This document shows positions 404-12,666 of a stretch of 12,666 nucleotides of DNA, piece by piece. Below the pieces are notes generated by a model. The model ran no database searches. It was not told the origin of the DNA and worked only from the letters and a program-made list of their open reading frames with translations. The DNA is from Acinetobacter geminorum (lineage in GTDB: Bacteria; Pseudomonadota; Gammaproteobacteria; Pseudomonadales; Moraxellaceae), in NCBI RefSeq assembly GCF_013009345.1, contig NZ_JABELE010000007.1, positions 186,038-198,703 on the forward strand, read 5' to 3'. Positions within the stretch are counted from its first letter, which is position 1. Each line of letters starts with the position of its first letter. Both the position numbers and the translations under genes were made by a program.

Positions 404-1801
404 TTAGCCTTTAGATATTCCTCCCCCTAAAGCTTTATAGAGTTCAATCAGGTTATTTAGTTTCATTTGCTCAAGTGCAAGTAAACCCTGCTGTGCTGCA
501 TAAGCAGAACGTTGGGCATCTAAAACCGTAAAATAACTATCAACGCCCGCTCTGTAATGTGCCATCGATAGTTTATATGTTGCAGATGTGGCTGAAACTA
601 AACGACGTTGAGCACCTAATCGTTCACCAATATGTGCATGTGTAGCAAGCGCATCATTAACTTCACGGAAAGCTGATTGAATGGCTTTTTCATATTTAGC
701 TAAAGCAATTTTCTGGTCAGTTTCTGCAATTTTAATATTCGTTTTTCTTGTTCCCAAATCAAAAATTGGTAGATCGATACTAGGTCCAATTGACCATGCA
801 AAATTACCAGTTTTAAATAAATCTTTAAGTTCAGTCGATGCATAGCCTGTAGAACCAGTAAGGCTTATGGTCGGAAACATACGTGCTTTCGCAGCCCCAA
901 TACTGGCCCCAGCTGCACGCAACTCATATTCGGCAACTTTAAGATCTGGTCGATGATTTAATAAATCACTTGGCAAACCTGCTGCAAAGTTTTTCTCAAT
1001 GGTAATATTTTGAATAGAATGATCCGGAAGTAAATTCTGCGGAATAGAATAACCTGCTAACAAATCCAGTAAATTTTTTGCCTGTTGGATTTGAGTTTTA
1101 TAAGTTGCAACATCATTTCGAGCAGTCTCTACCGAAATTTGCGCTTGTTTTAATGGAACTTCACTATCAATACCGACATCAAAGCGCTTTTTATTAAGAT
1201 GATAAGAATCAAGTTGAGCTTTTAAAGTCTGCTCTGCAAGGTTTAAATTAGCTTGAGCAAAGGCATAATTTAACCAAACTTGTGTGATATTGCTGATTAA
1301 ACTAATTTGAACTGCTTCGCTCGCACTTTGTGTTGCCAGATAATTATTTAATGCCACATCTTTTAAATTTTTTACACGGCCCCAAAAGTCTAATTCATAT
1401 GCAGTCATTCCTAAACCCACCTGAAATGTTGAAGCTGGGTTATTAGGATTAATAGATGGATTCACTTGCCGTACTGCACTCCCCATTACACCGATAGTAG
1501 GTAACTGGTTATTTTTAGTGATTTGGTATTCTTGCTGTACACGTTCAATATTGAGCGTAGCAGTACGCAAATCACGATTATTATTTAAACTGATTTCAAT
1601 CACCTGTAATAATTTCGGATCAGAAATAAACTCTTTATAACTTTTTTCTGCAATCGTTTTTCCAGAATGATTTTGACTAAAATTTTGAGGAATATGAGAT
1701 GTGATTGCAGGCTGTGGCGCTTGCATATTGACACATGCAACTAAAGTGACTGAGAGTGTAGAAAGAATGAGTCCACGAGATACGATTGCCGATTTAGACA
1801 T
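404..1801 (-). CDS. adeC: Outer-membrane channel of the AdeABC RND efflux pump (OprM/TolC-family lipoprotein), 465 aa
   Basis: I recognise the translation as AdeC. It has a signal peptide with lipobox LVA|C. The ORF track starts at a TTG (1813). I prefer the ATG at 1801 (MSKSAIV...) because GGAGA lies 6 nt upstream of it. Confidence 0.93.
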   Translation of the reverse strand: MSKSAIVSRGLILSTLSVTLVACVNMQAPQPAITSHIPQNFSQNHSGKTIAEKSYKEFISDPKLLQVIEISLNNNRDLRTATLNIERVQQEYQITKNNQLPTIGVMGSAVRQVNPSINPNNPASTFQVGLGMTAYELDFWGRVKNLKDVALNNYLATQSASEAVQISLISNITQVWLNYAFAQANLNLAEQTLKAQLDSYHLNKKRFDVGIDSEVPLKQAQISVETARNDVATYKTQIQQAKNLLDLLAGYSIPQNLLPDHSIQNITIEKNFAAGLPSDLLNHRPDLKVAEYELRAAGASIGAAKARMFPTISLTGSTGYASTELKDLFKTGNFAWSIGPSIDLPIFDLGTRKTNIKIAETDQKIALAKYEKAIQSAFREVNDALATHAHIGERLGAQRRLVSATSATYKLSMAHYRAGVDSYFTVLDAQRSAYAAQQGLLALEQMKLNNLIELYKALGGGISKG

Positions 1802-1877
1802 AGTATTCTCCAAATAAAGTAAATTTTGTGCATATGAAGCATCAGAGGAAATTAAGTATTCCCCTGATGCATTGAAC

Positions 1878-4800
1878 TTAGGATGAGATTTTTTTCTTAG
1901 AGGAAAATAGCTTTTCTACTGCACCCAAAATGAAGATAAAAAACACGGGAACAAAGAAAATAGCCAGTATGGTTGCTGAAATCATGCCACCAAAAACCCC
2001 TGTACCTAAAGCATGTTGAGTTTCTGAACTTGCACCTGTTGCAATAACCAAAGGAATTACACCACACGTAAATGCAAGAGAAGTCATTAGAATTGGCCGT
2101 AAGCGAAGTTTGGCTGCGGCAACAGTGGCTTCAATCAAACTCATGCCTTCCTCTTTTAGCATTTTCGCAAATTCAACAATCAAAATTGCATTCTTTGCCG
2201 ATAGACCAATAATGGTAATTAGCCCGATTTTGAAGAACACATCATTCATTAAACCTCTAGACATAATGGCAATGATTGCTCCAAAAATACCGAGTGGCAC
2301 AACCAACATCACAGAAAGTGGAATTGCCCAGCTTTCATAGAGTGCAGCCAATACGAGGAAAACAACGAGCATTGATAAACCAAGTAAAAAGGCCATTTGT
2401 GATTCAGACTGTTTTTCCTGTAAGGAAATACCAGTCCACTCGTAGCCAATACCTTTCGGTAATTTAGCAATCAGTTGTTCCATTTCACGCATTGCTTCAC
2501 CTGATGACGTATCGAAGTTAGGAATACCAGCAATACTCAAAGATGGTCGTCCGTTGTAACGATTATATTGTTGTGGTGCTTTATTCCATTGAGGTGTTAC
2601 TACTTCTGATAACGAAACTAATTGACCACTCGAACCCATCACTTTTAAGTTCAAGATATCTTTGAGTTGCATACGTGATTTAGCCTCAACTTGTACAATC
2701 ACTTGTTGCATACGCCCTTGATTAGGGAAGTCATTGATATACATTGAACCCATCGATGTAGAAATGATGTCTGAAACATCAGAAAACTTAACACCGAGCG
2801 CACTAAGCTTTTCGCGGTCAATTTTTAAAGAAATATTGTCACCTTGTGGTAGCCCTTCATTCCAAACCATATAGAACTTCTTATTTTTGGCTGCCATTGC
2901 CATAAGTTCATCTTGAGCAGCCAGTAAAGCAGGCATACCTAAGTTAGCACGGTCTTGTAAACGTAAACTGAAGCCTGAAAAAGTACCCAACTCATCAATA
3001 GAAGGTGGTAATACGGCCATAGTTTCACCTTCCGTACTGTTTGCCATTGAGGTATTAACGGCGCTTGTCATCTTAGATGCAGAGCTAGTCCGCTCTTTGA
3101 AGTCTTTAAGTGTCGTAAAAGCCACAGCTACGTTTTGTCCTGCGCCACTAAAACCCCATCCCAAAATGGTGGTATTACTTTTTACATCGGGATTATCTTT
3201 CAAATTATTTTCAAATTGATTGACTACATTCCGAGTACGCTCTGCGGTTGCATCTGAAGGTAGCTGGAACGAAGTCATGAACCAACCTTGATCTTCCTCT
3301 GGCATAAATGCTGTTGGCCAATATTTCATTCCGGCAAAGGTAATACCGGTAATTACTAAAAAGATCACCATCATTGGAACTGTATGTTTGATGATTTTAA
3401 GCAGCATCAATTCATACTTTTTAGTGACTTTATCGAAACTACGGTCAAACCATGCAAAGAAGCCCTTCTTCTGATGATGCCCATCGATTGGCTTTAAAAT
3501 CGTGGCACAAAGTGCCGGTGTTAAAATAAGTGCCAATAACGCTGAAAATAAAATAGATACCGACATGGTCAAGGTAAACTGTTTATAGATTACCCCTACA
3601 GAACCACTCGCAAATGCCATAGGTAAAAATACTGCAGCCAAGACCAGCGTAATACCAATAATCGGGCTGGTAATCTCTTTCATTGCTTTAGAGGTTGCAT
3701 CTTTAGGACTTAATCCTTCAGTCGCCATAATCCTTTCTACGTTTTCAACAACGACAATCGCATCGTCGACAATAATCCCGATGGCAAGCACCATACCGAA
3801 CATGGTGAGTACGTTAATTGAAAAGCCGGCAAGCAACATCACGGTAAAAGTACCGAGTAAGGCAATAGGCGCCACAATTGCTGGAATAAGCGTATAGCGG
3901 ACATTGTGTAAAAATAGATACATCACAATGAAAACCAGAACCATGGCTTCAAGTAATGTATGAATTACCTTTTCAATTGAAATTTTGACAAACGGCGCGG
4001 TGTCGTAAGGAATACTAAACTCCATGCCTTCCGGTAAATTTAGCTTCAATTCTTCAATTTTTGCTCGAACACCTTCGGCAGTTTTCACGGCGTTAGCTCC
4101 CGGGCTTAATTGAATTGCAGCCGCGGTAGCAGGCTTACCATTTTCCAAAATGGCAAAGTTATATGCTTGTGAACCTATTTCTACATTGGCAACATCAGAT
4201 AATTTAATTACGCTACCGTTAGTTTTACTTTTTAAGCTGATATTTTTAAATTGCTCAAGACTAGACAATTGCCCTTGAGCCGACAACGGAATAGTAATGA
4301 GCTGGCCTTTTTCAGCTGGTAAATCACCAAGTCTGCCGGGTGCAATTTCGACATTATTTTCACGAATGGCATTATTCACATCACTAATCGATAAACCGTA
4401 AGAAACAAGCTTATTCGGGTCGACCCAAATACGCATAGCTTTCTCGGCACCGAAAGATTGAACCTTCCCTACACCTTCGACACGTTTTAGCTCTTCTATA
4501 ACATTTCGAACCAAATAATCACTCAAATCAACTTCGGAATATTGATTATTTGGAGAGTTAATCCCGACCAGCATTAAAAATCCGGACGATGAAGCCTCAA
4601 CCTGTAAACCTTGCTGACGTACAACTTGCGGTAAGCGAGCTTCTACAGCCTTGATTTTATTTTGAACGTCAACCTGAGCCATTTCCACATCTGTGCCTGG
4701 TTTAAACGTAGCCGTAATCTCTGCTGTACCGGAGGTATCTGTTGTCGCACTATAGTAGAGTAGATTTTTTACACCCGATAATTCGCGCTCAATTAAGGTT

Positions 4801-4988
4801 ACAACGCTATCGTTAATGGTTTTAGCTGTAGCACCAGGATAAGTCGCACTAATATTCACCTGTGGCGGGGCCACACTTGGAAAACGTGCAATTGGCAGTT
4901 TAGGAATACTCAGCAATCCAAATATAATAATAAAGATCGCGATAACCCAAGCAAAAACGGGGCGACGAATAAAAAATTGTGACATCAT
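1878..4988 (-). CDS. adeB: RND inner-membrane multidrug transporter of the AdeABC pump, 1036 aa
   Basis: The full-length translation is recognisable as Acinetobacter AdeB (AcrB family, 12-TM architecture with large periplasmic loops). Its ATG overlaps the adeA stop in ATGA (4985-4988). Confidence 0.97.
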   Translation of the reverse strand: MMSQFFIRRPVFAWVIAIFIIIFGLLSIPKLPIARFPSVAPPQVNISATYPGATAKTINDSVVTLIERELSGVKNLLYYSATTDTSGTAEITATFKPGTDVEMAQVDVQNKIKAVEARLPQVVRQQGLQVEASSSGFLMLVGINSPNNQYSEVDLSDYLVRNVIEELKRVEGVGKVQSFGAEKAMRIWVDPNKLVSYGLSISDVNNAIRENNVEIAPGRLGDLPAEKGQLITIPLSAQGQLSSLEQFKNISLKSKTNGSVIKLSDVANVEIGSQAYNFAILENGKPATAAAIQLSPGANAVKTAEGVRAKIEELKLNLPEGMEFSIPYDTAPFVKISIEKVIHTLLEAMVLVFIVMYLFLHNVRYTLIPAIVAPIALLGTFTVMLLAGFSINVLTMFGMVLAIGIIVDDAIVVVENVERIMATEGLSPKDATSKAMKEITSPIIGITLVLAAVFLPMAFASGSVGVIYKQFTLTMSVSILFSALLALILTPALCATILKPIDGHHQKKGFFAWFDRSFDKVTKKYELMLLKIIKHTVPMMVIFLVITGITFAGMKYWPTAFMPEEDQGWFMTSFQLPSDATAERTRNVVNQFENNLKDNPDVKSNTTILGWGFSGAGQNVAVAFTTLKDFKERTSSASKMTSAVNTSMANSTEGETMAVLPPSIDELGTFSGFSLRLQDRANLGMPALLAAQDELMAMAAKNKKFYMVWNEGLPQGDNISLKIDREKLSALGVKFSDVSDIISTSMGSMYINDFPNQGRMQQVIVQVEAKSRMQLKDILNLKVMGSSGQLVSLSEVVTPQWNKAPQQYNRYNGRPSLSIAGIPNFDTSSGEAMREMEQLIAKLPKGIGYEWTGISLQEKQSESQMAFLLGLSMLVVFLVLAALYESWAIPLSVMLVVPLGIFGAIIAIMSRGLMNDVFFKIGLITIIGLSAKNAILIVEFAKMLKEEGMSLIEATVAAAKLRLRPILMTSLAFTCGVIPLVIATGASSETQHALGTGVFGGMISATILAIFFVPVFFIFILGAVEKLFSSKKKISS

Positions 4989-6175
4989 GGTTGCGCCCCC
5001 TCAGTTATAGAAGCTTTCTTTTCTATACTTGAAGCATGACTGACCACTGCTGAAGCTTTCCATGCTGCCAATGCCAATTTTTGATTTGGCTTAATACGAT
5101 CAATACCCTCAACAACGACTTTGTCACCCACCTTCAAGCCTTTATTGGCAATATAGTACTGTTCATACTGCTGTCCGATTTCAATAGGACGAACATCAGC
5201 TGACCCTTTAGCGTTGATGACATATACCTGAGGCTCACCATTAATATTGCGTTGAATGGCTTGAGCTGGAACTAATAAAGCTTGTGGGATAGAAGCTCGA
5301 TCAATATTAACTCGTACATACATACCCGGGAGTAGTTTTCTCTCGGTATTGTTTACTTCAATACGGAACGTGACATCACCTGTTTCCGGGTCAACATTAA
5401 TATCTTCAAACAACATTTTTGCTGTGACGTTATAAGGTTGCCCGTGACTATTGGTAATACGAACGGTTTTGTCACTATTTGCTGATAATTCTCCGCTTTG
5501 TAGCGCAGCTTGTAAGCGCTCATACTCACTAACTGATTGCTTTACATCGACATAGACTTTATCAATCTGTTGGATTGTGGCCATGGTATTGGTATCGCCT
5601 TGACCAACCAATGCACCTTCAGTGACAAAAGACTGCCCAATACGCCCTGAGATTGGTGCCCGAACAGTTGCATATTGCAAATTCAAATTTTGTCTAGCAA
5701 GCAATGCTTTCATTTGAGCAACATCAGCTTGGGCCTGACGATATTGAGCTTGAGCATTACTTACTTCCTGCTTGCTAATCGCATTACTTGGTAAAAGCTG
5801 CTCATAACGCTCTAATTGCACTTTTAATCGTGTCACCTCAGCTTCAGCTTTATTGAGTGAGGCTCTATTGCTATTTACATCTGCCTCAAAAGTTTCTGAG
5901 TTAATTTTATATAGAGCTTGCCCTGCTCTAACTTCACTACCTTGCTTAAATAGAACTCTTTCAATAATCCCTCCGACTTGCGGACGTATTTCAGCCGTAC
6001 GGAACGCCTGTACCCGTGCAGGAAGATTTTCACTGAAATTAACCGATTGCGGTTGAATACTTAATACACTGACTTTAGCTGGTGGTGGTTCAGCTTGAGC
6101 CGCTTCTTTTGAACCACACCCCTGTAATACCAGCCCAATAGATAAAAATAAAGGAAGTAAAAGATGCTTTTGCAT
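4985..6175 (-). CDS. adeA: Periplasmic membrane-fusion adaptor lipoprotein of the AdeABC pump, 396 aa
   Basis: The translation is recognisable as AdeA (MQKHLLLPLFLSIGL.., lipobox LQG|C, HlyD/AcrA-like coiled coil and beta-barrel). The ORF track begins at a TTG (6184), and the ATG at 6175 is the likely start. Confidence 0.95.
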   Translation of the reverse strand: MQKHLLLPLFLSIGLVLQGCGSKEAAQAEPPPAKVSVLSIQPQSVNFSENLPARVQAFRTAEIRPQVGGIIERVLFKQGSEVRAGQALYKINSETFEADVNSNRASLNKAEAEVTRLKVQLERYEQLLPSNAISKQEVSNAQAQYRQAQADVAQMKALLARQNLNLQYATVRAPISGRIGQSFVTEGALVGQGDTNTMATIQQIDKVYVDVKQSVSEYERLQAALQSGELSANSDKTVRITNSHGQPYNVTAKMLFEDINVDPETGDVTFRIEVNNTERKLLPGMYVRVNIDRASIPQALLVPAQAIQRNINGEPQVYVINAKGSADVRPIEIGQQYEQYYIANKGLKVGDKVVVEGIDRIKPNQKLALAAWKASAVVSHASSIEKKASITEGAQP

Positions 6176-6242
6176 ACTGTCCAAACCTAGTGAGTTTTTG
6201 ATGCTGACATTATTTTTGATGAGTGTGTAGGGATAATCACTA

Positions 6243-6263
6243 AAGTGTGGAGTAAGTGTGGAG
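6243..6263 (+). promoter_or_regulatory. AdeR operator: 10-bp direct repeat AAGTGTGGAG-T-AAGTGTGGAG in the adeA-adeR intercistronic spacer
   Basis: Two exact copies (6243-6252 and 6254-6263) are separated by one T. This matches the published AdeR-binding direct repeat located between adeR and adeABC. Confidence 0.85.
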
Positions 6264-6320
6264 AAATACCGATAATTTAGCGTATGATGAGTTGAAGCAC
6301 TTTGTATAGCCAGATTTTCT

Positions 6321-7064
6321 ATGTTTGATCATTCTTTTTCTTTTGATTACCAACATAAAGTTATCCTCGTTGTGGAAGATGACTACGACATTGGCGACAT
6401 TATTGAAAATTATTTAAAACGTGAAGGAATGACGGTTATTCGTGCCATGAATGGAAAGCAAGCAATTGAATTGCACGCTAGCCAACCTATCGATTTAATC
6501 TTACTTGATATTAAATTACCCGAGCTCAACGGCTGGGACGTGTTAAATAAAATACGTCAGAAAGCTCAAACTCCCGTGATTATGCTGACGGCGCTAGATC
6601 AAGATATTGATAAGGTTATGGCATTACGCATAGGTGCAGATGACTTTGTGGTTAAGCCTTTTAACCCAAATGAAGTCGTTGCTAGAGTTCAGGCAGTGCT
6701 AAGAAGAACTCAATTTGCAAACAAAACATCCACTAAAAATAAAATCTACAAAAACATTGAAATTGATACAGACACTCATAGTGTTTATCTTCACTCCGAA
6801 AATAAAAAAATATTGCTTAATCTGACGCTGACTGAATATAAAATTATTTCCTTCATGATTGACCAGCCCCACAAGGTATTTACACGTGGTGAGCTCATGA
6901 ATCATTGTATGAATGATAGTGATGCATTAGAACGAACCGTAGATAGCCATGTGAGTAAGCTGAGAAAAAAACTAGAAGAACAAGGCATATTTCAAATGTT
7001 AGTTAATGTGCGTGGCGTGGGATATAGGCTAGATAATCCCCTAGCTATAAAAGATGATGCCTAA
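6321..7064 (+). CDS. adeR: OmpR/PhoB-family response regulator of adeABC, 247 aa
   Basis: The translation is recognisable as AdeR, with a receiver domain (phospho-acceptor D63 in LLLD63IKLP) and a winged-helix C-terminus. Residues D20, A91 and P116, sites of reported up-regulating substitutions, are wild-type here. Confidence 0.95.
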   Translation: MFDHSFSFDYQHKVILVVEDDYDIGDIIENYLKREGMTVIRAMNGKQAIELHASQPIDLILLDIKLPELNGWDVLNKIRQKAQTPVIMLTALDQDIDKVMALRIGADDFVVKPFNPNEVVARVQAVLRRTQFANKTSTKNKIYKNIEIDTDTHSVYLHSENKKILLNLTLTEYKIISFMIDQPHKVFTRGELMNHCMNDSDALERTVDSHVSKLRKKLEEQGIFQMLVNVRGVGYRLDNPLAIKDDA

Positions 7065-7094
7065 ATAATATTAAAAATAGCTAGGGAATATTTT

Positions 7095-8165
7095 ATGAAA
7101 AGTAAGTTAGGAATTAGTAAGCAACTTTTTATTGCCTTAACTATTGTAAATTTAAGCGTTACGCTATTTTCTGTAGTACTGGGTTATGTCATTTATAACT
7201 ATGCGATTGAAAAAGGCTGGATTTCTTTAAGCTCACTTCAAGAAGATTGGACCACTTTTCATTTTGTAGATTGGATTTGGTTGGCTACTGTTATTTTCAG
7301 TGGCTGTATGATTTCATTAGTGATCGGCATGCACCTCGCAAAGCGTTTTATTGTGCCAATTAACTTCTTAGCCGAAGCAGCAAAAAAAATTAGTCAAGGC
7401 GACCTCTCTGCTAGAGCTTACGATAACCGAATTCACTCGGCTGAAATGTCGGAGCTTTTATATAATTTTAATGATATGGCTCAAAAGCTAGAGGTTTCTG
7501 TTCAAAATGCACAAGTATGGAATGCTGCCATCGCTCATGAGTTAAGAACTCCAATCACAATTTTACAAGGCCGCCTGCAAGGCATAATTGATGGCGTTTT
7601 TAAACCTGATGAAGCTCTATTTAAAAGCCTTCTAAGTCAGGTTGAAGGCTTATCTCATTTGGTTGAGGACTTACGAACATTAAGTTTAGTAGAGAACCAG
7701 CAACTCAGATTAAATTATGAGTTATTTGACTCTAAGCCCGTAGTTGAAAAGGTTCTTAAAGCATTTGAAGATCGCTTGGAACAAGCTAACCTCGTACCAG
7801 AACTTAATCTTACTACGACTCCTGTTTTGAGTGACCGCCGTCGTATTAAGCAAGTTTTGATTGCTTTAATTGATAATGCTATTCGTTATTCAAATGCGGG
7901 CAAACTTAAAATTTCATCGGAATTGGTATCACAAAACTGGATATTAAAAATTGAGGACGAAGGTCCCGGCATTGCAACCGAGTTTCAAGATGATTTATTT
8001 AAACCCTTTTTTAGATTAGAAGAATCAAGAAATAAAGAATTTGGTGGCACAGGTTTAGGACTTGCTGTTGTACATGCAATTATTGTGGCACTGAAAGGTA
8101 CTATTCAATATAGCAATCAAGGCTCAAGAAGTATTTTCACCATAAAAATTCCAATGGAGAATTAA
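7095..8165 (+). CDS. adeS: Sensor histidine kinase of the AdeRS system, 356 aa
   Basis: The translation is recognisable as AdeS. It has two N-terminal TM segments, HAMP, the H-box AIAH148ELRTP, and N/G boxes (DNAIRYS, EDEGPGI, GGTGLGL). AGGGA lies 7 nt upstream of the ATG. Confidence 0.95.
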   Translation: MKSKLGISKQLFIALTIVNLSVTLFSVVLGYVIYNYAIEKGWISLSSLQEDWTTFHFVDWIWLATVIFSGCMISLVIGMHLAKRFIVPINFLAEAAKKISQGDLSARAYDNRIHSAEMSELLYNFNDMAQKLEVSVQNAQVWNAAIAHELRTPITILQGRLQGIIDGVFKPDEALFKSLLSQVEGLSHLVEDLRTLSLVENQQLRLNYELFDSKPVVEKVLKAFEDRLEQANLVPELNLTTTPVLSDRRRIKQVLIALIDNAIRYSNAGKLKISSELVSQNWILKIEDEGPGIATEFQDDLFKPFFRLEESRNKEFGGTGLGLAVVHAIIVALKGTIQYSNQGSRSIFTIKIPMEN

Positions 8166-8173
8166 GAATAATT

Positions 8174-8359
8174 TTACTTTTGAAATTTTTCTTCCTCCTC
8201 TTTTATCCTTCTACGAATTTCTTCTCGCCATTTTGTGGCATTTTCTTGTTGTTTATTTAATAGGACACCTAACATATAAGCTGTAACCGCTGCGCCAATT
8301 AAAGCAATACCCGTTTCATAAATAATATCTATAACAAACTCTAGCATTCCCTCCGACAA
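8174..8359 (-). CDS. Hypothetical small single-pass membrane protein (57-61 aa) with a highly charged C-terminal tail
   Basis: The ORF has one hydrophobic helix (GIALIGAAVTAYMLGVLL) followed by KWREEIRRRIKEEEEKFQK. The track start is TTG (8359). An in-frame ATG at 8347 follows GGAGGGA but with very short spacing. The stop lies only 8 nt from the adeS stop, in convergent orientation. I recognise no homology. Confidence 0.35.
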   Translation of the reverse strand: MSEGMLEFVIDIIYETGIALIGAAVTAYMLGVLLNKQQENATKWREEIRRRIKEEEEKFQK

Positions 8360-8404: not shown

Positions 8405-8764
8405 TATAGATTGATCATTGAAGCGAATAAGAATGTGAACAATGAGCCTGCTTTAAAAAACTCTTTGTTTAATAATTCCTATGTTAAGTTAGAAACAGCA
8501 CGGAGCCTTTTAAATGAAGAATATCCAGACTGGATTCAAGGCTTAGATAAAAACGGTTATGACTATGGTGACCTCAATACAATATGTTGGATGACCGTAT
8601 TTATGGAAAACTACGTAAATAAAGTTGAAGGTCAATACAAAAGCCAACTTAAGGATGAAACCGTAAATGATGTTCATAGCCTATACGGTGAAAGACAAAA
8701 AATTATTAAGTTACGCGACAGTAAAGATAAAACTGCTCGAAACTTTGTAGAAGTATGTGAATAG
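8405..8764 (+). repeat. Direct repeat copy 1 (360 bp, 350/360 identical to 12307-12666)
   Basis: My base-by-base hand alignment found 10 substitutions and no indels. The unit period is 3902 bp. Confidence 0.9.
8411..8764 (+). pseudogene. 5'-truncated orphan copy of the 162-aa lipoprotein (putative immunity) gene, lacking the signal peptide and lipobox
   Basis: It corresponds to residues 46-162 of the 12178-12666 product, with 4 aa differences. The 'start' is a TTG that encodes an internal Leu in the full-length copy. The frame is closed by TAA at 8390-8392, there is no ATG or GTG in between, and there is no SD. Confidence 0.6.
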
Positions 8765-8775
8765 ATCATTGTTAT

Positions 8776-8803
8776 AAAAGCCCTGAATGTTCAGGGCTTT
8801 TTT
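8776..8803 (+). terminator. Rho-independent terminator (AAAAGCCCTGA-ATGT-TCAGGGCTTTTTT)
   Basis: A GC-rich 7-bp core stem (8780-8786 / 8791-8797) is extended by A/T pairs. It has a 4-nt loop and a run of six T. Confidence 0.75.
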
Positions 8804-9149: not shown

Positions 9150-10025
9150 ATGCTCGTTAAGAAGAATAAGGCTTTGTTTTACATCTTCCCTTTGGTTTTA
9201 GTTATCGGTTTCTATGTCCTTTTTCGTGTATCTATTCTTCCTTATATTTATACCAAGCAAGCACAGCATCAACTTTTAACAACAAACAATCAAACAACTG
9301 AAATTTATTGGAAAGAGCCAGACCTCTTAGCTAATAAAAAGTATCCAGCAATTATCTTTTTACATGGCATTCAAAAAGATAAACAAGGTGCAAAAGCCTT
9401 TGTACGCTCTGGCTTGTTAAATGAATATAGTAAAAAGAACATTTTCAGTGTTGCTGTATCTATGAGTGGATATGGTGAGTCCTCTGGGAAATCAGATTTT
9501 TGTGGTAAAGCCTCACAATATAATCTTGTAAAAGCCATTAATTTTGCTCGTTCACAACCTCATGTTGACCCAAATAAAGTTGCGGTGATTGGTATTAGTT
9601 GTGGTGCGTCTATAGCAAATGTTGTAGCTAACTCTGGAAAGATAAATGCTTTGGTTCTGGTATCTGGGTTTTATGATTTTAAAGGTATGTATACTCAGTG
9701 GAGTTCTAACACTAGAACGCTACCGTCAAATGTAATGGAAGAAATAAATGAATCTATTGCTGCATCAAAAAATATAGAAAATGCGTCGGCATCTAGATCA
9801 TCGCTACCAATTTCGTCTCACTATCCATCTACTCTTATATTAGTTGGTACTAAAGACCCAATTGTTGACCCGAAGCAAAGTACTCAGCTACATCAATTAC
9901 TTGATAGTAAAGGTATTCCGAATACCTTAGCACTGATTCAAGATGCTAAGCATCCTGTGCCTGCTAATGTGTGGAAAACTAAAAGTGATTCATTTTTAGA
10001 AAATACTTTGAATATAAAAAATTAA
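9150..10025 (+). CDS. Membrane-anchored alpha/beta-fold serine hydrolase (dienelactone-hydrolase / S9-peptidase-like esterase), 291 aa
   Basis: There is an N-terminal hydrophobic anchor (ALFYIFPLVLVIGFYVLF) and a nucleophile elbow G-I-S150-C-G (Ser codon at 9597-9599). Acid and His candidates are GTKD236P and AKH268P, in the canonical Ser-Asp-His order. An IIFLHG oxyanion-region motif is also present. Confidence 0.85.
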   Translation: MLVKKNKALFYIFPLVLVIGFYVLFRVSILPYIYTKQAQHQLLTTNNQTTEIYWKEPDLLANKKYPAIIFLHGIQKDKQGAKAFVRSGLLNEYSKKNIFSVAVSMSGYGESSGKSDFCGKASQYNLVKAINFARSQPHVDPNKVAVIGISCGASIANVVANSGKINALVLVSGFYDFKGMYTQWSSNTRTLPSNVMEEINESIAASKNIENASASRSSLPISSHYPSTLILVGTKDPIVDPKQSTQLHQLLDSKGIPNTLALIQDAKHPVPANVWKTKSDSFLENTLNIKN

Positions 10026-10142
10026 GAGATAAATGGGCTGCTCTGTAGATACCTTATATCAACCCTATGGCGGTACTGTTCGACCAAACCCACCTCATAC
10101 TAAATTTTCTTTTACCTTAAATTCAGCAGCAAGACGTAAATC

Positions 10143-10214
10143 ATGAATAGAAAATTTATCAGCACTATTGTTCTCATTTCTGTGTTTGGAGTTGCTGCTT
10201 GTGGTAAAGCTTAA
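10143..10214 (+). pseudogene. Detached lipoprotein signal peptide (MNRKFISTIVLISVFGVAA|CGKA) ending at an in-frame TAA. It is the 5' part of the following gene.
   Basis: It shows the classic n-h-c signal peptide plus lipobox VAAC. It is in the same frame as 10224-10835, separated only by TAA (10212-10214) and three sense codons (N-E-Q). Confidence 0.55.
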
Positions 10215-10223
10215 AATGAACAG

Positions 10224-10835
10224 ATGGATACTTCAAAAAACAGTTCTAAAAACGTAAAAACTGAACTATCAGCAAGTGATAAAGCGATTTTAGATAGATA
10301 TGACTCTATCACAAATGAAGTTGTGACCTCAGGTGAAAATGAAAAGATAAAGCAAACTTTAGAGCCTTTAATTCCTGAAATAAAGAAAGTTACTGCTAAG
10401 AAACAAAGAGAAATGGCATTAATGAATATTTATATGTTGTCAGGAATGTACAAAAAAGCTTATGAGCTAAATGAGCAACAGATCAAAGATAAACCCTTGC
10501 CTCAACGGATAATGTTTAGATGTACATTGCTTAAAAAACTAAATGAGGCCAAAGTAAAAATTCAACAGTGTCACGAAGCTTCAGCGCAACTCATACAAAC
10601 CGAATTAAGTAAATCATCTAACAAAAATGATCCTCATTACAGAGACGCCGAATTTGTATATTTAACTGAAATGTATAAAGCTGGTCACACTGAATATAAA
10701 GCTAAAATACAGAAATTTATTGATGAGACTAAAGATGTCGCATCAAAAGATAGATATAAGTCTTTGTATGATGTAGATATTGAGTCATTTTATGGTACTG
10801 ATTCACCAAATTATGTACCAGAATCATTAAAGTAA
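10224..10835 (+). CDS. Hypothetical helical (TPR-like?) protein, 203 aa. It is probably the mature part of a lipoprotein separated from its signal peptide by a nonsense codon.
   Basis: This is a long ORF with Lys/Glu-rich composition that is predicted to be helical. No convincing SD precedes the ATG at 10224. The upstream in-frame signal-peptide ORF is listed separately. A terminator follows. Confidence 0.6.
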   Translation: MDTSKNSSKNVKTELSASDKAILDRYDSITNEVVTSGENEKIKQTLEPLIPEIKKVTAKKQREMALMNIYMLSGMYKKAYELNEQQIKDKPLPQRIMFRCTLLKKLNEAKVKIQQCHEASAQLIQTELSKSSNKNDPHYRDAEFVYLTEMYKAGHTEYKAKIQKFIDETKDVASKDRYKSLYDVDIESFYGTDSPNYVPESLK

Positions 10836-10844
10836 AACTTAAAT

Positions 10845-10872
10845 AAAAAGCCCTGAATACTCAGGGCTTTTT
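10845..10872 (+). terminator. Rho-independent terminator (AAAAAGCCCTGA-ATAC-TCAGGGCTTTTT)
   Basis: It has the same GCCCTGA/TCAGGGC stem as the terminator at 8776-8803, differing in only two loop bases, and is followed by a run of five T. Confidence 0.75.
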
Positions 10873-11011
10873 AAATTGCTTTACACAGATCGAGATATTC
10901 ACATTCGTATTGAACGTATATGCTGTACATCCTGATAAATAAAACTATACAGCACTGTCTACCCCTCTTTGCTATCATTCCGGCACTTCATGAAAATAAG
11001 AAGGAAGAGTT

Positions 11012-11557
11012 TTGGCGACACCATATATAACTATAGGCTGCCCAACTTCAGGTGGTGGTCAAGTAATTTCTGGGAACAGTATGTTTCTAGTTGACGGTAT
11101 TCCCGTTGCCTGTGTCGGTGATAAAGCAACCTGCCCAACTCATAAAGTTGTTGCGACAATTGTCTCAGGTGATCCATACATGCAAATTTTTGGTAAATCA
11201 GCTGCGCGTGTGAATGATTCACTTTCATGCGGTTGCAAATTATTGCCTCAACAAAATTTAGTTGTGCAGGATAATGGCGGTGGTTCGTCTCAAAGTGCCA
11301 CTACTACTAATACAGCTGCTCAAGATAGCTTTGTAGAAGATAAGTCAAAAGAATATGGAATTCAGTTCCAGTTAAAGGATGAGAAGACACAAAAGATCTT
11401 TAGTGAAATTCCTTATTCAATTATTTATAAGAAGGATGGAAAGGTGGAAACCGGTTGGACCGATAAAGAAGGTAAAACGCATGTTATCAATGCTGCCACA
11501 CCTGATGAGGTGGAGTTTCAGACGATTGATGCTTCTAAACCGCTACCACCGCTTTAA
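11012..11557 (+). CDS. PAAR-domain protein (T6SS spike-tip family) with a Gly/Ser/Thr linker and a ~75-aa beta-rich C-terminal extension, 181 aa
   Basis: The N-terminal ~86 aa carry PAAR-family signatures (GIPVACVGDKATCPTH, GKSAARVNDSLSCGC). The start is TTG, with AGGAAG 4 nt upstream. The first in-frame ATG (M24) would cut into the PAAR fold. The linker is GGGSSQSATTTNTAAQ. Confidence 0.85.
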   Translation: MATPYITIGCPTSGGGQVISGNSMFLVDGIPVACVGDKATCPTHKVVATIVSGDPYMQIFGKSAARVNDSLSCGCKLLPQQNLVVQDNGGGSSQSATTTNTAAQDSFVEDKSKEYGIQFQLKDEKTQKIFSEIPYSIIYKKDGKVETGWTDKEGKTHVINAATPDEVEFQTIDASKPLPPL

Positions 11558-11566
11558 GGATTGAAA

Positions 11567-12181
11567 ATGGCACAAGATAAAGTATTTTCTCCGACACTCA
11601 TTCCATCTTTGGATAACGAGGTAAAAGTCTGTCATGCAGATGAGTTACTGGACCCTCTCTTATGTAATAGCATTGTTAAAATCCTAAACTACCATACAAC
11701 AGTACCCTACACTTTCATGATGAATCAGGCACAATGGGATTGGGTAAAACAGCATTATCCATTTGAGCATGATCTAGCAATCCGTTTTGGTCTTGAATTT
11801 GATTTACGTCAATTTTCAGATGAAGTGTTAGAACGCTATTCATTCCATACGATGATGTATTTGAAGTTCACCCTTTATGCTCAAAAACACTCTAGGAATA
11901 AAGGCGCCGAGATGATTACAGAGCTTGCAAAAGATACTTTTAAAGCTCGTATGGCAATTGCAAAACAAAACTTTGGTGAAATAATAGATTTGGCATTATC
12001 TAATGCGAGTAAGCCTGTTCTTGCAGCTAATGCATTAGCTACGTATACCAACAATGGACCATATGGTATTAACGAATATATGTATAAAAACGTCTTTGGT
12101 CGTACTTACGATCAAGCCACTGTTTCATTATATATTCAGAAATACCACTACACTCCACCTAATAACCGCTTCTCACTATGA
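11567..12181 (+). CDS. Hypothetical 204-aa protein: candidate T6SS cargo effector (toxin) of unknown family
   Basis: AGGA lies 6 nt before the ATG at 11567, whereas the track start TTG at 11561 sits inside that spacer. The gene begins 9 nt after the PAAR stop, and its stop overlaps the next gene's ATG (ATGA at 12178-12181). There is no signal peptide, no TM segment and no motif I recognise. The CDS call is solid, but the function is inferred from context only. Confidence 0.75.
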   Translation: MAQDKVFSPTLIPSLDNEVKVCHADELLDPLLCNSIVKILNYHTTVPYTFMMNQAQWDWVKQHYPFEHDLAIRFGLEFDLRQFSDEVLERYSFHTMMYLKFTLYAQKHSRNKGAEMITELAKDTFKARMAIAKQNFGEIIDLALSNASKPVLAANALATYTNNGPYGINEYMYKNVFGRTYDQATVSLYIQKYHYTPPNNRFSL

Positions 12182-12666
12182 AAATTACATTAATATCAAT
12201 ATTGATACTTTCCAGCTTATTCCTAACTTCTTGTAAGGCTTCGACAGATAAAGAAGACATTGATAACTATGTGAAAGTAGATCTGAAAAATTATGCTACT
12301 GACAATTATAGATTGATCATTGAAGCAAATAAGAATGTGAACAATGAGCCTGCTTTAAAAAACTCGTTGTTTAATAATTCCTATGTTAAGTTAGAAACAG
12401 CACGGAGCCTTTTAAATGATGAATATCCAGACTGGATTCAAGGCTTAGATAAAAACGGTTATGACTATGGTGACCTCAACACAATATGTTGGATGACGGT
12501 ATTCATGGAAAACTACGTAAATAAAGTTGAAGATCCATACAAAAGCCAACTTAAGGATGAAACCTTAAATGATGTTCACAGCCTATACGGTGAAAGACAA
12601 AAAATTATTAAGTTACGCGACAGTAAAGATAAAACTGCTCGAAACTTTGTAGAAGTATGTGAATAG
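12178..12666 (+). CDS. Exported lipoprotein, 162 aa: candidate cognate immunity protein
   Basis: It has a signal peptide MKITLISILILSSLFLTS|C19 with lipobox LTSC (Cys codon at 12232-12234) and two further Cys. It is translationally coupled to the preceding gene. A diverged truncated copy lies at 8405-8764. Its stop codon is the last triplet of the window. Confidence 0.85.
   Translation: MKITLISILILSSLFLTSCKASTDKEDIDNYVKVDLKNYATDNYRLIIEANKNVNNEPALKNSLFNNSYVKLETARSLLNDEYPDWIQGLDKNGYDYGDLNTICWMTVFMENYVNKVEDPYKSQLKDETLNDVHSLYGERQKIIKLRDSKDKTARNFVEVCE
12307..12666 (+). repeat. Direct repeat copy 2 (partner of 8405-8764)
   Basis: See copy 1. The match is 350/360 identical. Six of the differences are synonymous and four are non-synonymous in the lipoprotein frame. 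Confidence 0.9.

Follow-up and report, generated by a model that had tools for sequence, protein, structure and literature searches.

A PAAR protein, a small cargo protein and a lipoprotein as a putative T6SS effector-immunity cassette of Acinetobacter

Three genes that lie beside the AdeABC drug-efflux genes on an Acinetobacter chromosome, at the end of the window (the whole stretch of 12,666 nucleotides that was analysed), probably form one translationally coupled operon, which would encode a type VI secretion system (T6SS) spike-tip carrier, an antibacterial cargo bound to it non-covalently, and the immunity protein of this cargo. The cargo, encoded by gene 2, appears to represent a new family of effectors, although the type of system to which it belongs is already known. 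A reading made from the letters of this DNA (the sequence-only reading) had already proposed that gene 2 specifies a T6SS cargo toxin acting in the periplasm or envelope, and gene 3 its immunity protein, a putative assignment that is now supported by the linkage to PAAR, the co-divergence of the two genes, the pattern in which they decay and the Cys pairs conserved in both products.

Organization and distribution of the module

The features of the module are listed in Table 1. The sequence-only reading had described three plus-strand genes separated by a 9-nt gap and then an ATGA overlap, and both coordinates and junctions agree with our own, the spacer between genes 1 and 2 being ggattgaaa. 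The TTG start of gene 1 is preceded by an AGGAAG Shine-Dalgarno sequence and is kept in the orthologues of loci L001, L002, L007, L008 and L028. At its 5' side the module is bounded by a hairpin terminator that closes the upstream gene. Since the same layout recurs in three NCBI assemblies (identity 99.96-99.98% across >11 kb), the arrangement is not an assembly artefact. An upstream ORF (10224-10835) gave a Colicin_D match with E 3e-4 and 21.5 bits, below the cut-off of 25.

Table 1. Features of the module and of a related remnant, in positions of the window
Feature	Position	Strand	Remarks
Bidirectional hairpin terminator	10844-10873	both	stem of 13 bp, then a T run
Gene 1, PAAR protein	11012-11557	+	TTG start, 181 aa
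PAAR core, aa 1-95, putative VgrG-spike cap	11012-11296	+	Pfam PAAR_motif; PDB profile matches
Gly/Ser/Thr-rich linker, aa 96-112, putative recombination joint between core and cassette	11297-11347	+	identity break against L028
C-terminal domain (CTD), aa 113-181 and stop, beta-rich, putative cargo-docking domain	11348-11557	+	conservation, co-variation
Gene 2	11567-12181	+	ATG start, TGA stop, 204 aa
Gene 2 N-terminal segment, aa 1-45, putative CTD-docking region	11567-11701	+	low pLDDT; invariant Cys22/Cys33
Gene 2 helical domain, aa 46-204 and stop, putative toxic domain	11702-12181	+	all-alpha model
Gene 3, lipoprotein, putative immunity protein	12178-12666	+	162 aa; ATG overlaps the TGA of gene 2 (ATGA)
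5'-truncated gene 3 copy with its own terminator	8405-8801	+	remnant 8405-8764, terminator-like hairpin 8776-8801

The clear PAAR core noticed earlier in gene 1 is borne out by the Pfam model PAAR_motif (PF05488), which covers residues 9-78 with E 9.8e-22 and 77.4 bits (cut-off 27), and by profile matches to the PAAR structures 4jiv, 4jiw, 7pq5, T4 gp5.4 and phiKZ in the PDB. The NCBIfam model T6SS_PAAR_dom, for which the cut-off is 124, gave 29 bits, a score so far under it that gene 1 is not taken as a canonical 88-aa core PAAR. With PF05488 at its N-terminus, its product would rather be a class 2, C-terminally extended PAAR spike-tip protein. Behind the linker, whose alignment is gapped and variable, stands a CTD that is present in every PAAR preceding a member of the gene 2 family, with Q118, F119, Y135, G148, T150, G154, T156, D173, S175, L178 and L181 invariant, and whose type goes with the type of the cargo and not with that of the PAAR core. 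A transthyretin-like (TTR) fold of the CTD is weakly indicated by matches that are all sub-threshold, namely to the SpaA prealbumin-like family PF17802 (E 0.03-0.08), to bMG3 (E 0.007-0.1) and to 6h56, the C-terminal construct of VgrG2b (residues 11-63, in its TTR-containing N-terminal part, E 0.17). A large protein search with the CTD profile retrieved only 11 short fragments.

The gene 3 product starts with MKITLISILILSSLFLTSC and was rightly recognised as a small lipobox lipoprotein: it has a signal peptide (aa 1-18) and the lipobox LTSC, with the lipidation residue Cys19 encoded at 12232-12234, and two further Cys, Cys104 and Cys161. The 20 downstream proteins examined, one per locus and spanning 27-98% identity, all share this pattern, that is, a lipobox-type Cys at position 16-26 and exactly two more conserved Cys. 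Homology between the lipoproteins of different clades is weak (hhalign probability 45%; 16-20 bits versus at most 7 for shuffles) and is considered probable. The conserved Cys pairs of gene 2 and of the lipoprotein fit a periplasmic site of action, as does the pairing of an exported lipoprotein with a cargo that has no signal peptide.

The gene 2 family is restricted to Acinetobacter, where it comprises some 100 clusters when grouped at 90% identity, none of which has a name; one member, P0083, was found in 841 indexed blocks of the assembly collection, in the A. calcoaceticus/baumannii complex. Gene order was counted in 21 genome loci, L028 and the plasmid locus L033, and every intact locus presents the order PAAR with CTD, family member (202-238 aa) and lipoprotein (160-172 aa), which is the layout of an effector gene beside PAAR followed by a small cognate gene. 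No other neighbour of gene 2 is conserved across the loci. The module is located directly 3' of tssM (IcmF domains), tagF and tagN (encoding an OmpA-domain TagN-like protein) in L005, L018 and L019, the last two of which additionally have an 88-aa core PAAR, and a PAAR-5 gene precedes PAAR-2 in L012-L016, L020 and plasmid L033. No T6SS core genes were found within the window or within its 20-kb relatives (L022).

Exchange, co-divergence and decay of the cassette

Natural chimeras show a joint exchange of CTD, cargo and lipoprotein, as a single cassette, behind a PAAR core that stays conserved. The PAAR core of L028 is 94% identical to that of the window, versus 36% for the CTD, 37% for the cargo and 27% for the lipoprotein, and its DNA identity drops from 80-96% to about 50% at around nt 270 of gene 1. 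In the L018 chimera, a core of the window type (58-65%) is joined to the CTD, cargo and lipoprotein of the other clade.

A finer division can be seen in L007/L008, whose PAAR is 96-97% identical to that of the window (96% in the CTD) and whose cargo is 98% identical over aa 1-45, while identity falls to only 70% over aa 105-204 of the cargo and to 51% in the lipoprotein. In this comparison the N-terminus of the cargo tracks PAAR, and its C-terminal half, the variable part of the protein (aa 105-204), tracks the lipoprotein. The lipoprotein co-diverges with gene 2 at a faster pace, the paired identities of gene 2 and lipoprotein to those of the window being 97/98, 97/95, 90/75, 87/73 and 80/51. 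Identities of CTD and lipoprotein are also correlated across clades (Spearman 0.89), so that on clade structure alone either the CTD or gene 2 could be the partner of the lipoprotein, and only the comparison with L007/L008 separates the two. With its lipobox and conserved Cys pair, the putative immunity protein would be placed in the compartment where the putative toxin is proposed to act, and it seems to co-evolve with this toxin.

Decay of the locus is toxin-like. Gene 2 is truncated or disrupted by an IS beside an intact lipoprotein gene in L006, L011, L012 and L021; in L006, L011 and L012 the cargo genes are 5'-truncated, so that their 3' pieces stand beside full-length lipoproteins without any CTD, and in L011 and L012 such 3' fragments of the putative toxin gene form arrays, in which the putative immunity genes are intact. 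In A. ursingii, which has been reported to be T6SS-negative (PMC6838775), an IS3-type transposase interrupts the cargo gene and only a truncated PAAR is left, the lipoprotein gene being intact.

Nature of the gene 2 product and alternative readings

Gene 2 had been read as having neither an export signal nor a transmembrane (TM) segment, and this is upheld: no signal peptide and no TM-grade segment was detected, the maximum Kyte-Doolittle mean over 19 residues being 1.04 (family median 0.78, family maximum 1.51). Hydropathy was also the measure used for a comparison with pore-forming T6SS toxins (colicin-like, VasX, Tse4, Ssp6), whose mark is a hydrophobic helical hairpin or membrane-inserting segments. 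No toxin-family motif had been placed in it either, and our searches against Pfam, NCBIfam and PDB sequences were likewise empty, while a Pfam scan of 54 family members at E<=1 gave scattered single matches only. A first structure model, from an alignment of 18 sequences, had a pLDDT of 60 and Foldseek matches that were noise. A second one, from 54 sequences, is all-alpha and of moderate confidence (overall pLDDT 74.8); aa 1-45 are below 50 in both models, and most of aa 46-204 reaches 80-94 in the second. Foldseek against PDB and BFVD found no relative of the second model at E<1, the best PDB match having E 2.2 and a TM-score of at most 0.2, and gene 2 would then apparently define an uncharacterised family with a new fold. 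In spite of an overall identity of 26-37%, about 20 residues are invariant in the family, many of them charged or polar. They include C22 and C33 (54/54 sequences) and, in the helical domain, E67, R73, E77, D79, T95, Y98, Y104, R128 and N162, with H94 present in 51/54; none is a Ser. Such conservation looks enzyme-like.

Several known activities were considered and rejected. Membership of the Tpe1/VgrG2b-Cter metallopeptidases had been considered because of the identical PAAR-5/PAAR-2 layout, but HEXXH occurs in 0/91 members, DUF4157 is not matched and the profile misses 6h56. A Tle phospholipase is excluded by the absence of GxSxG and HxKxxxxD in 91 members and of an invariant Ser, and a Tae amidase, with its papain-like Cys-His alpha+beta fold, was rejected on the all-alpha model of gene 2 and the absence of a PDB relative. 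For a Tge muramidase an acidic pair exists (E67/E77-D79), but a match to the lysozyme fold is absent. A Cys22-His94 catalytic dyad is at odds with the replacement of H94 in 3/54 members and with the all-alpha fold; a disulfide is likelier, because C22 lies in the low-confidence N-terminus beside a second invariant Cys.

The sequence-only reading had itself suggested profile and Foldseek searches with gene 2, and these returned no match that would mark it as an adaptor, a chaperone or a housekeeping enzyme, an outcome in favour of that reading. It can still be proposed that gene 2 encodes an adaptor or chaperone for PAAR, in which case the small CTD would be the real toxin and the lipoprotein would neutralise it. 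Gene 2 always accompanies this CTD, the correlation between CTD and lipoprotein across clades is high, and gene 2 contains no recognisable catalytic motif, all of which would agree with such a role. Yet neither gene 2 nor 54 members of its family matched the T6SS adaptor/chaperone families DUF4123 (Tap/Tec), DUF1795 (Eag) or DUF2169 in Pfam at E<=1, gene 2 sits after PAAR whereas adaptor genes are usually upstream of their effector, and its set of largely polar invariant residues also argues against an adaptor. The CTD, for its part, has only about 70 aa, is beta-rich and gives weak prealbumin-like matches typical of docking domains. In L007/L008 the CTD is nearly unchanged, and the divergence of the lipoprotein is matched by that of gene 2; the orphan units of L006, L011 and L012 keep 3' pieces of gene 2 with the lipoprotein and no CTD. 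We regard this role as quite unlikely. It could also be the case that gene 2 is delivered by the T6SS for a purpose other than antibacterial (as a host-directed or nutrient-scavenging protein, or as an accessory of the spike) and that the lipoprotein has an unrelated role in the envelope. Host-directed T6SS effectors normally have no exported partner of the immunity type, and tight coupling, co-divergence and retention of the partner upon decay of gene 2 are the signature of immunity. The lack of a recognisable toxic domain is in favour of a non-antibacterial function, as is A. baylyi Tpe1, which has the same layout and is toxic only conditionally (PMC6899460), and on balance such a function seems unlikely.

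If gene 2 were a toxin acting in the cytoplasm, with its immunity encoded elsewhere or not needed, the lipoprotein would be a passenger. The lack of an export signal in gene 2 and its unassigned activity would allow for this, but the constancy of the lipoprotein and its Cys pattern in 20/20 loci, its translational coupling or close spacing, its co-divergence with the C-terminal half of gene 2 and the lack of any further conserved neighbour make it very unlikely. The module might finally derive from a phage or mobile element, with PAAR as the tip of a tail spike, gene 2 as a virion protein and the lipoprotein acting in superinfection exclusion. Two PHROGs were matched, 24557 (of unknown function) by gene 2 at E 2.5e-29 and 26452 by the neighbouring ORF; PAAR-like proteins cap phage spikes, as in the T4 gp5.4 and phiKZ structures matched by gene 1; some copies of the module are on plasmids or in islands with integrase, UmuDC and antirepressor genes; and in L022 a gene for an ANT-domain protein follows downstream. 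However, only 2/50,697 phage records gave matches, and both come from a bacterial assembly that was mislabelled, as contigs with locus tags >3500 and with ndpA and umuDC nearby. Because these records are mislabelled and phage structural genes flank none of the copies examined, a phage origin, to which the embedding of three loci in a T6SS core cluster is also opposed, was rejected as extremely improbable.

Proposed mechanism and relation to known systems

For the preferred reading, that of a spike-borne toxin with its immunity protein, we propose that the PAAR core caps the VgrG trimer and that the CTD, behind its flexible linker, is the docking site of gene 2, as inferred from their co-variation. 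The first ca. 45 residues of the cargo, disordered on their own, would bind the CTD, and the compact helical domain would be the toxic part. Firing of the T6SS would put PAAR and cargo into the periplasm of a neighbouring cell, where gene 2, possibly after formation of a Cys22-Cys33 disulfide, would attack a component of the envelope with a polar site made of conserved residues (E67, R73, E77, D79, H94, Y98, R128, N162); as a guess, we favour a hydrolytic action on the cell wall or on cell-wall precursors over the formation of pores. Sibling cells would be shielded by the lipoprotein, which would carry its lipid on Cys19, would probably be anchored in the outer membrane, given Lys at +2, and would probably contain a C104-C161 disulfide; it would bind the toxin in the C-terminal half that varies. 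By recombination at the linker of PAAR, the CTD/cargo/lipoprotein cassette would be exchanged, and displaced 3' toxin fragments and immunity genes would be left behind. We put forward more tentatively the fuller picture of a genus-specific T6SS effector family that would combine an unseen all-alpha fold, a new envelope-directed enzymatic activity, a disordered docking peptide with its dedicated CTD, and a three-gene plug-in cassette swapped in Acinetobacter, clinical A. baumannii included.

The closest layout is that of A. baylyi ADP1 ACIAD0051-0054, described, in the account of Ringel 2017 given in PMC6899460 and PMC6838775, as PAAR-5, PAAR-2, Tpe1 (a DUF4157 metallopeptidase with periplasmic action) and Tpi1. 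Both systems have an orphan class 2 PAAR with a C-terminal extension, a cargo of about 200 aa and a small envelope-exposed immunity protein (putative here), and they share the PAAR-5/PAAR-2 order in the seven loci named above and the periplasmic site of action (proposed here). Unlike Tpe1, gene 2 has no HEXXH or DUF4157 and no zincin relative for its predicted fold; VgrG2b-Cter (6h56) is not matched by its profile, the match to this structure being confined to the PAAR CTD; and unlike Tpi1, which is anchored in the inner membrane, the putative immunity protein is a lipoprotein. TTR adaptor domains, which carry cargo effectors in EAEC VgrG1-Tle1 and in the PAAR-TTR of Shneider 2013 (as cited in PMC6899460), resemble the CTD in being small beta-rich domains on a spike protein with a type matched to the downstream cargo, the prealbumin-like matches of the CTD being sub-threshold; the proposed partner differs in being a short disordered cargo N-terminus that moves with the CTD as one recombination cassette. 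With polymorphic toxins (Rhs, CDI, V. cholerae aux clusters) the module has in common a constant 5' delivery part, a variable 3' part with its cognate immunity gene, recombination at the junction, and, as in L011 and L012, 3' toxin fragments that lie in arrays together with immunity genes still intact. In contrast to these toxins, the exchanged unit comprises CTD, cargo and immunity genes rather than the tip of one large protein, and in contrast to Rhs/CdiA the putative toxin is a free 200-aa protein rather than an encapsulated domain. The A. rudis pair T6EC3/T6IC3 (PMC11148199), in which a lytic transglycosylase of SleB-like type is joined to PAAR and the immunity protein is located in the periplasm, is likewise PAAR-associated, unannotated by sequence and accompanied by a partner with an export signal, and T6EC3 toxicity needs periplasmic targeting; T6EC3 is a covalent fusion that matches the SleB fold 4F55, whereas gene 2 is separate and its model matches no SleB or lysozyme-like structure.

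Two surveys of Acinetobacter T6SS bear on the meaning of these results: no A. baumannii PAAR gene was found co-located with a predicted effector in one (PMC6833914), and the neighbourhood of the 181-aa PAAR-2a (PGN1) was catalogued without a toxin in the other (PMC6838775). The gene 2 family would fill this gap beside PAAR genes and, if a toxin, would be among the weapons with which a priority pathogen competes. The putative pair formed by genes 2 and 3 would still be one further effector-immunity pair, of a system whose kind is already well understood. A domain of 160 residues with no fold relative and a compact invariant polar set is nevertheless attractive for finding a new envelope-directed activity and could reveal a new antibacterial target, and the natural chimeras amount to a map of the spike-docking and immunity-facing parts that may be useful for the engineering of T6SS cargo.

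Displaced orphans of toxin tips and immunity genes have been noted at A. baumannii vgrG loci (PMC6833914). In the window, the copy of gene 3 at 8405-8764, taken in the sequence-only reading for a diverged orphan fragment, turned out to be a 5'-truncated remnant and not a diverged immunity gene: it has 97.2% DNA identity to 12307-12666, lacks the signal peptide and the lipobox, and lies in a region that matches L001 past the stop codon.

Layout and boundaries of the module

Two thirds of the window, on its left, are taken up by efflux genes: the AdeABC operon on the minus strand and, divergent from it, adeRS on the plus strand (see table). AdeC, AdeR and AdeS pass the curated NCBIfam cut-offs, which marks the organism as an Acinetobacter of the calcoaceticus/baumannii type. 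The efflux set is complete, and the T6SS module is thus an accessory island placed beside a clinically important resistance locus. Its three genes lie exactly where the sequence-only reading had placed them. The TTG start of gene 1 and its AGGAAG are kept in orthologues, and the 9-nt spacer between genes 1 and 2 contains the gene-2 Shine-Dalgarno sequence, which overlaps the PAAR stop codon. The same 11 kb is found in three NCBI assemblies at 99.96-99.98% identity and runs on beyond the end of the window; this shows the gene order to be genuine and the end of the window to be arbitrary.

Features of the window
Feature	Position	Strand	Remarks
adeC	404-1813	minus	above NCBIfam curated cut-off
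adeB	1878-4988	minus	part of complete AdeABC RND efflux operon (404-8165 including adeRS)
adeA	4985-6184	minus	part of AdeABC RND efflux operon
adeR	6321-7064	plus	divergent from adeABC; above NCBIfam curated cut-off
adeS	7095-8165	plus	divergent from adeABC; above NCBIfam curated cut-off
61-aa ORF	8174-8359	minus	just downstream of adeS; hydrophobic N-terminal half, Glu/Lys-rich tail
gene-3 remnant	8405-8764		copy of last 360 nt of lipoprotein gene, 5'-truncated, 97.2% identical; 8405-8801 with own terminator hairpin
alpha/beta hydrolase	9150-10025		291 aa; Peptidase_S9/BD-FAE/Abhydrolase matches; N-terminal hydrophobic segment
203-aa ORF	10224-10835		5'-truncated homologue (90% identity) of 233-aa lipoprotein downstream of module in locus L002
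hairpin terminator	10844-10873		strong; sets module apart from upstream gene
gene 1 (PAAR)	11012-11557	plus	TTG start after AGGAAG
gene 2 (cargo)	11567-12181	plus	204 aa
gene 3 (lipoprotein)	12178 to last base of window	plus	start within ATGA overlap with gene 2

Gene 1 encodes a PAAR protein (PF05488, E 9.8e-22) with a core of ~95 aa, a Gly/Ser/Thr-rich linker and a C-terminal domain (CTD) of ~70 aa. The CTD has no Pfam family and gave sub-threshold matches only, all to prealbumin (transthyretin)-type beta-sandwich domains, as well as a weak match to the crystallised C-terminal construct of VgrG2b, in its N-terminal part; according to its authors, VgrG2b has a TTR-like linker fold immediately before its metallopeptidase domain (PMC6899460). 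Gene 3 carries a classical lipoprotein signal (LTSC with Cys19, and Lys in the +2 position) and two more cysteines, C104 and C161. In each of the 20 downstream lipoproteins, the cysteine of the lipobox is accompanied by exactly two others, conserved in equivalent positions, a pattern that fits a disulfide-bonded periplasmic protein. Between lipoproteins of different clades, homology is only weakly detectable.

The cargo family

Gene 2 had been described from sequence as a protein of no recognisable toxin family, signal peptide or TM segment, and this description holds: neither a signal peptide nor a TM-grade segment was found in its 204 aa, and searches of Pfam, NCBIfam and PDB sequences, with the single sequence or a profile, were empty. 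In multi-billion-sequence protein collections its relatives are almost confined to Acinetobacter; grouped at 90% identity they form about 100 clusters, at 50% identity 27 representatives stand for them, and all are labelled hypothetical. In an alignment of 54 sequences, whose identity to the window protein ranges over 26-88%, about 20 positions are invariant, including C22 and C33 in the N-terminal 35 residues and the polar set E67, R73, E77, D79, T95, Y98, Y104, R128 and N162; H94 is kept in 51 of the 54. So many invariant polar residues suggest that gene 2 may be an enzyme. HExxH, GxSxG and HxKxxxxD are absent from 91 of 91 family members. AlphaFold2, run on this alignment, predicts a disordered N-terminus and an all-alpha fold for residues ~46-200 (pLDDT mostly 80-94, pTM 0.74), for which Foldseek, the structural check that had been proposed, found no relative in PDB or BFVD (best E 1.5-2.2, TM at most 0.2). 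No description of the family was found in the searchable literature, and two surveys of Acinetobacter T6SS missed it (PMC6833914, PMC6838775). Gene 2 is a member of an uncharacterised, Acinetobacter-restricted family without a fold relative in the libraries searched.

Two metagenome-assembled genomes binned outside the genus, 'Longicatena sp.' (L004, 2.5-kb contig) and 'Vitreoscilla sp.' (L016, 4.5-kb contig), carry modules that match the window at 87% identity or closely resemble other Acinetobacter loci; their assignment is probably a binning error and not a sign of spread beyond the genus. A 294-aa protein of a Logan assembly (P0015) appears to join a DHDPS (PF00701) N-terminal part to family residues ~70-204; most likely this chimera arose in assembly or gene calling and is not a true domain fusion.

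Conservation, exchange and decay of the cassette

The loci compared were 21 from species-representative genomes, one from the A. baumannii complex (L028) and one from an A. soli plasmid (L033). Wherever the locus is intact, a PAAR gene with this CTD is followed by a gene-2 family member and a lipoprotein of 160-172 aa. In L005, L018 and L019 the module is directly 3' of TssM, TagF and an OmpA-domain TagN-like gene, and therefore the family is physically tied to the T6SS main cluster; L018 and L019 additionally carry an 88-aa core PAAR. In L012-L016, L020 and L033 the PAAR-2 gene has a PAAR-5 gene before it. The same layout is described for A. baylyi ACIAD0051-0054, with the metallopeptidase Tpe1 as cargo and Tpi1 as its partner (PMC6838775, PMC6899460).

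L028 is 94% identical to the window in the PAAR core and 36%, 37% and 27% in CTD, cargo and lipoprotein, DNA identity falling from 80-96% to about 50% at the PAAR linker. In L018 a window-type core is joined to a CTD, cargo and lipoprotein that belong to the other clade. These natural chimeras show that CTD, cargo and lipoprotein are exchanged as one cassette. Within the close clade, in L007 and L008, the PAAR is nearly unchanged (96-97%), as are cargo residues 1-45 (98%), while the lipoprotein (51%) has diverged along with cargo residues 105-204 (70%). By these identities, the N-terminus of the cargo tracks the carrier, and the C-terminal half tracks the lipoprotein, which speaks against a pairing of the lipoprotein with the CTD. 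The cargo genes of L006, L011 and L012 are 5'-truncated next to full-length lipoproteins, and in A. ursingii, reported to have no T6SS (PMC6838775), an intact lipoprotein gene remains beside a truncated PAAR and a cargo gene that an IS3-type element has split.

The chimeras, the divergence in L007/L008, the decay pattern and the conserved lipoprotein cysteines all favour the sequence-only reading of gene 2 as toxin and gene 3 as immunity protein. An adaptor match, which would have spoken against it, was not detected in Pfam searches of gene 2, which sits downstream of PAAR. Genes 1-3 are a genuine, well-delimited PAAR-cargo-immunity module, a known type of system with an uncharacterised cargo family. 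We infer toxicity and secretion of gene 2, its contacts with CTD and lipoprotein, the disulfides and the target, which the export of the partner protein suggests to be in the envelope.

The commonest family member, P0083, from A. calcoaceticus/baumannii-complex genomes, is indexed in 841 collection blocks. In L028 (CP156041.1, 1-12696) it lies in an island with tyrosine integrase, SRAP, UmuD/UmuC-like and P22-type antirepressor genes and IS elements, a content suggesting that an integrative element is another vehicle of the cassette. Two 'Acinetobacter phage MD-2021a' records of a phage collection (CAKLQF020000027.1, L032, and CAKLQH020000065.1) carry the module; its neighbours there include ndpA, umuDC and a DNA methylase, locus tags exceed 3500, and the PAAR is annotated as 'Pyocin large subunit'. 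These records look like bacterial-genome contigs deposited under a phage name.

The stretch between adeS and the module

The fragment of gene 3 that had been taken for a diverged orphan is a recombination remnant, probably non-functional, which with its terminator (8405-8801) is also present in the close-relative loci L022, L023 and L024. Its presence suggests that the cassette was once replaced or duplicated between adeS and the present module. Orphan units in other genomes are better support for immunity-like behaviour.

The 203-aa ORF, with a 35%-identical lipoprotein downstream of the module in L005, matches PHROG 26452 and 36356 (function unknown in PHROG) and, below threshold, Colicin_D (21.5 bits, cut-off 25); it may be a second, orphan immunity-type gene. 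An 89%-identical copy of the alpha/beta hydrolase is found upstream of PAAR in L001 too, and the 61-aa ORF corresponds to a 57-aa gene call in L023 (GCA_964266385.1). This last locus, otherwise 99.97-100% identical, lacks window positions 9197-10462 (1.27 kb), which hold the hydrolase gene and the 5' part of the 203-aa ORF, and has an extra transposase (PF00872) 3' of the lipoprotein gene; structurally, this region is unstable among close strains.
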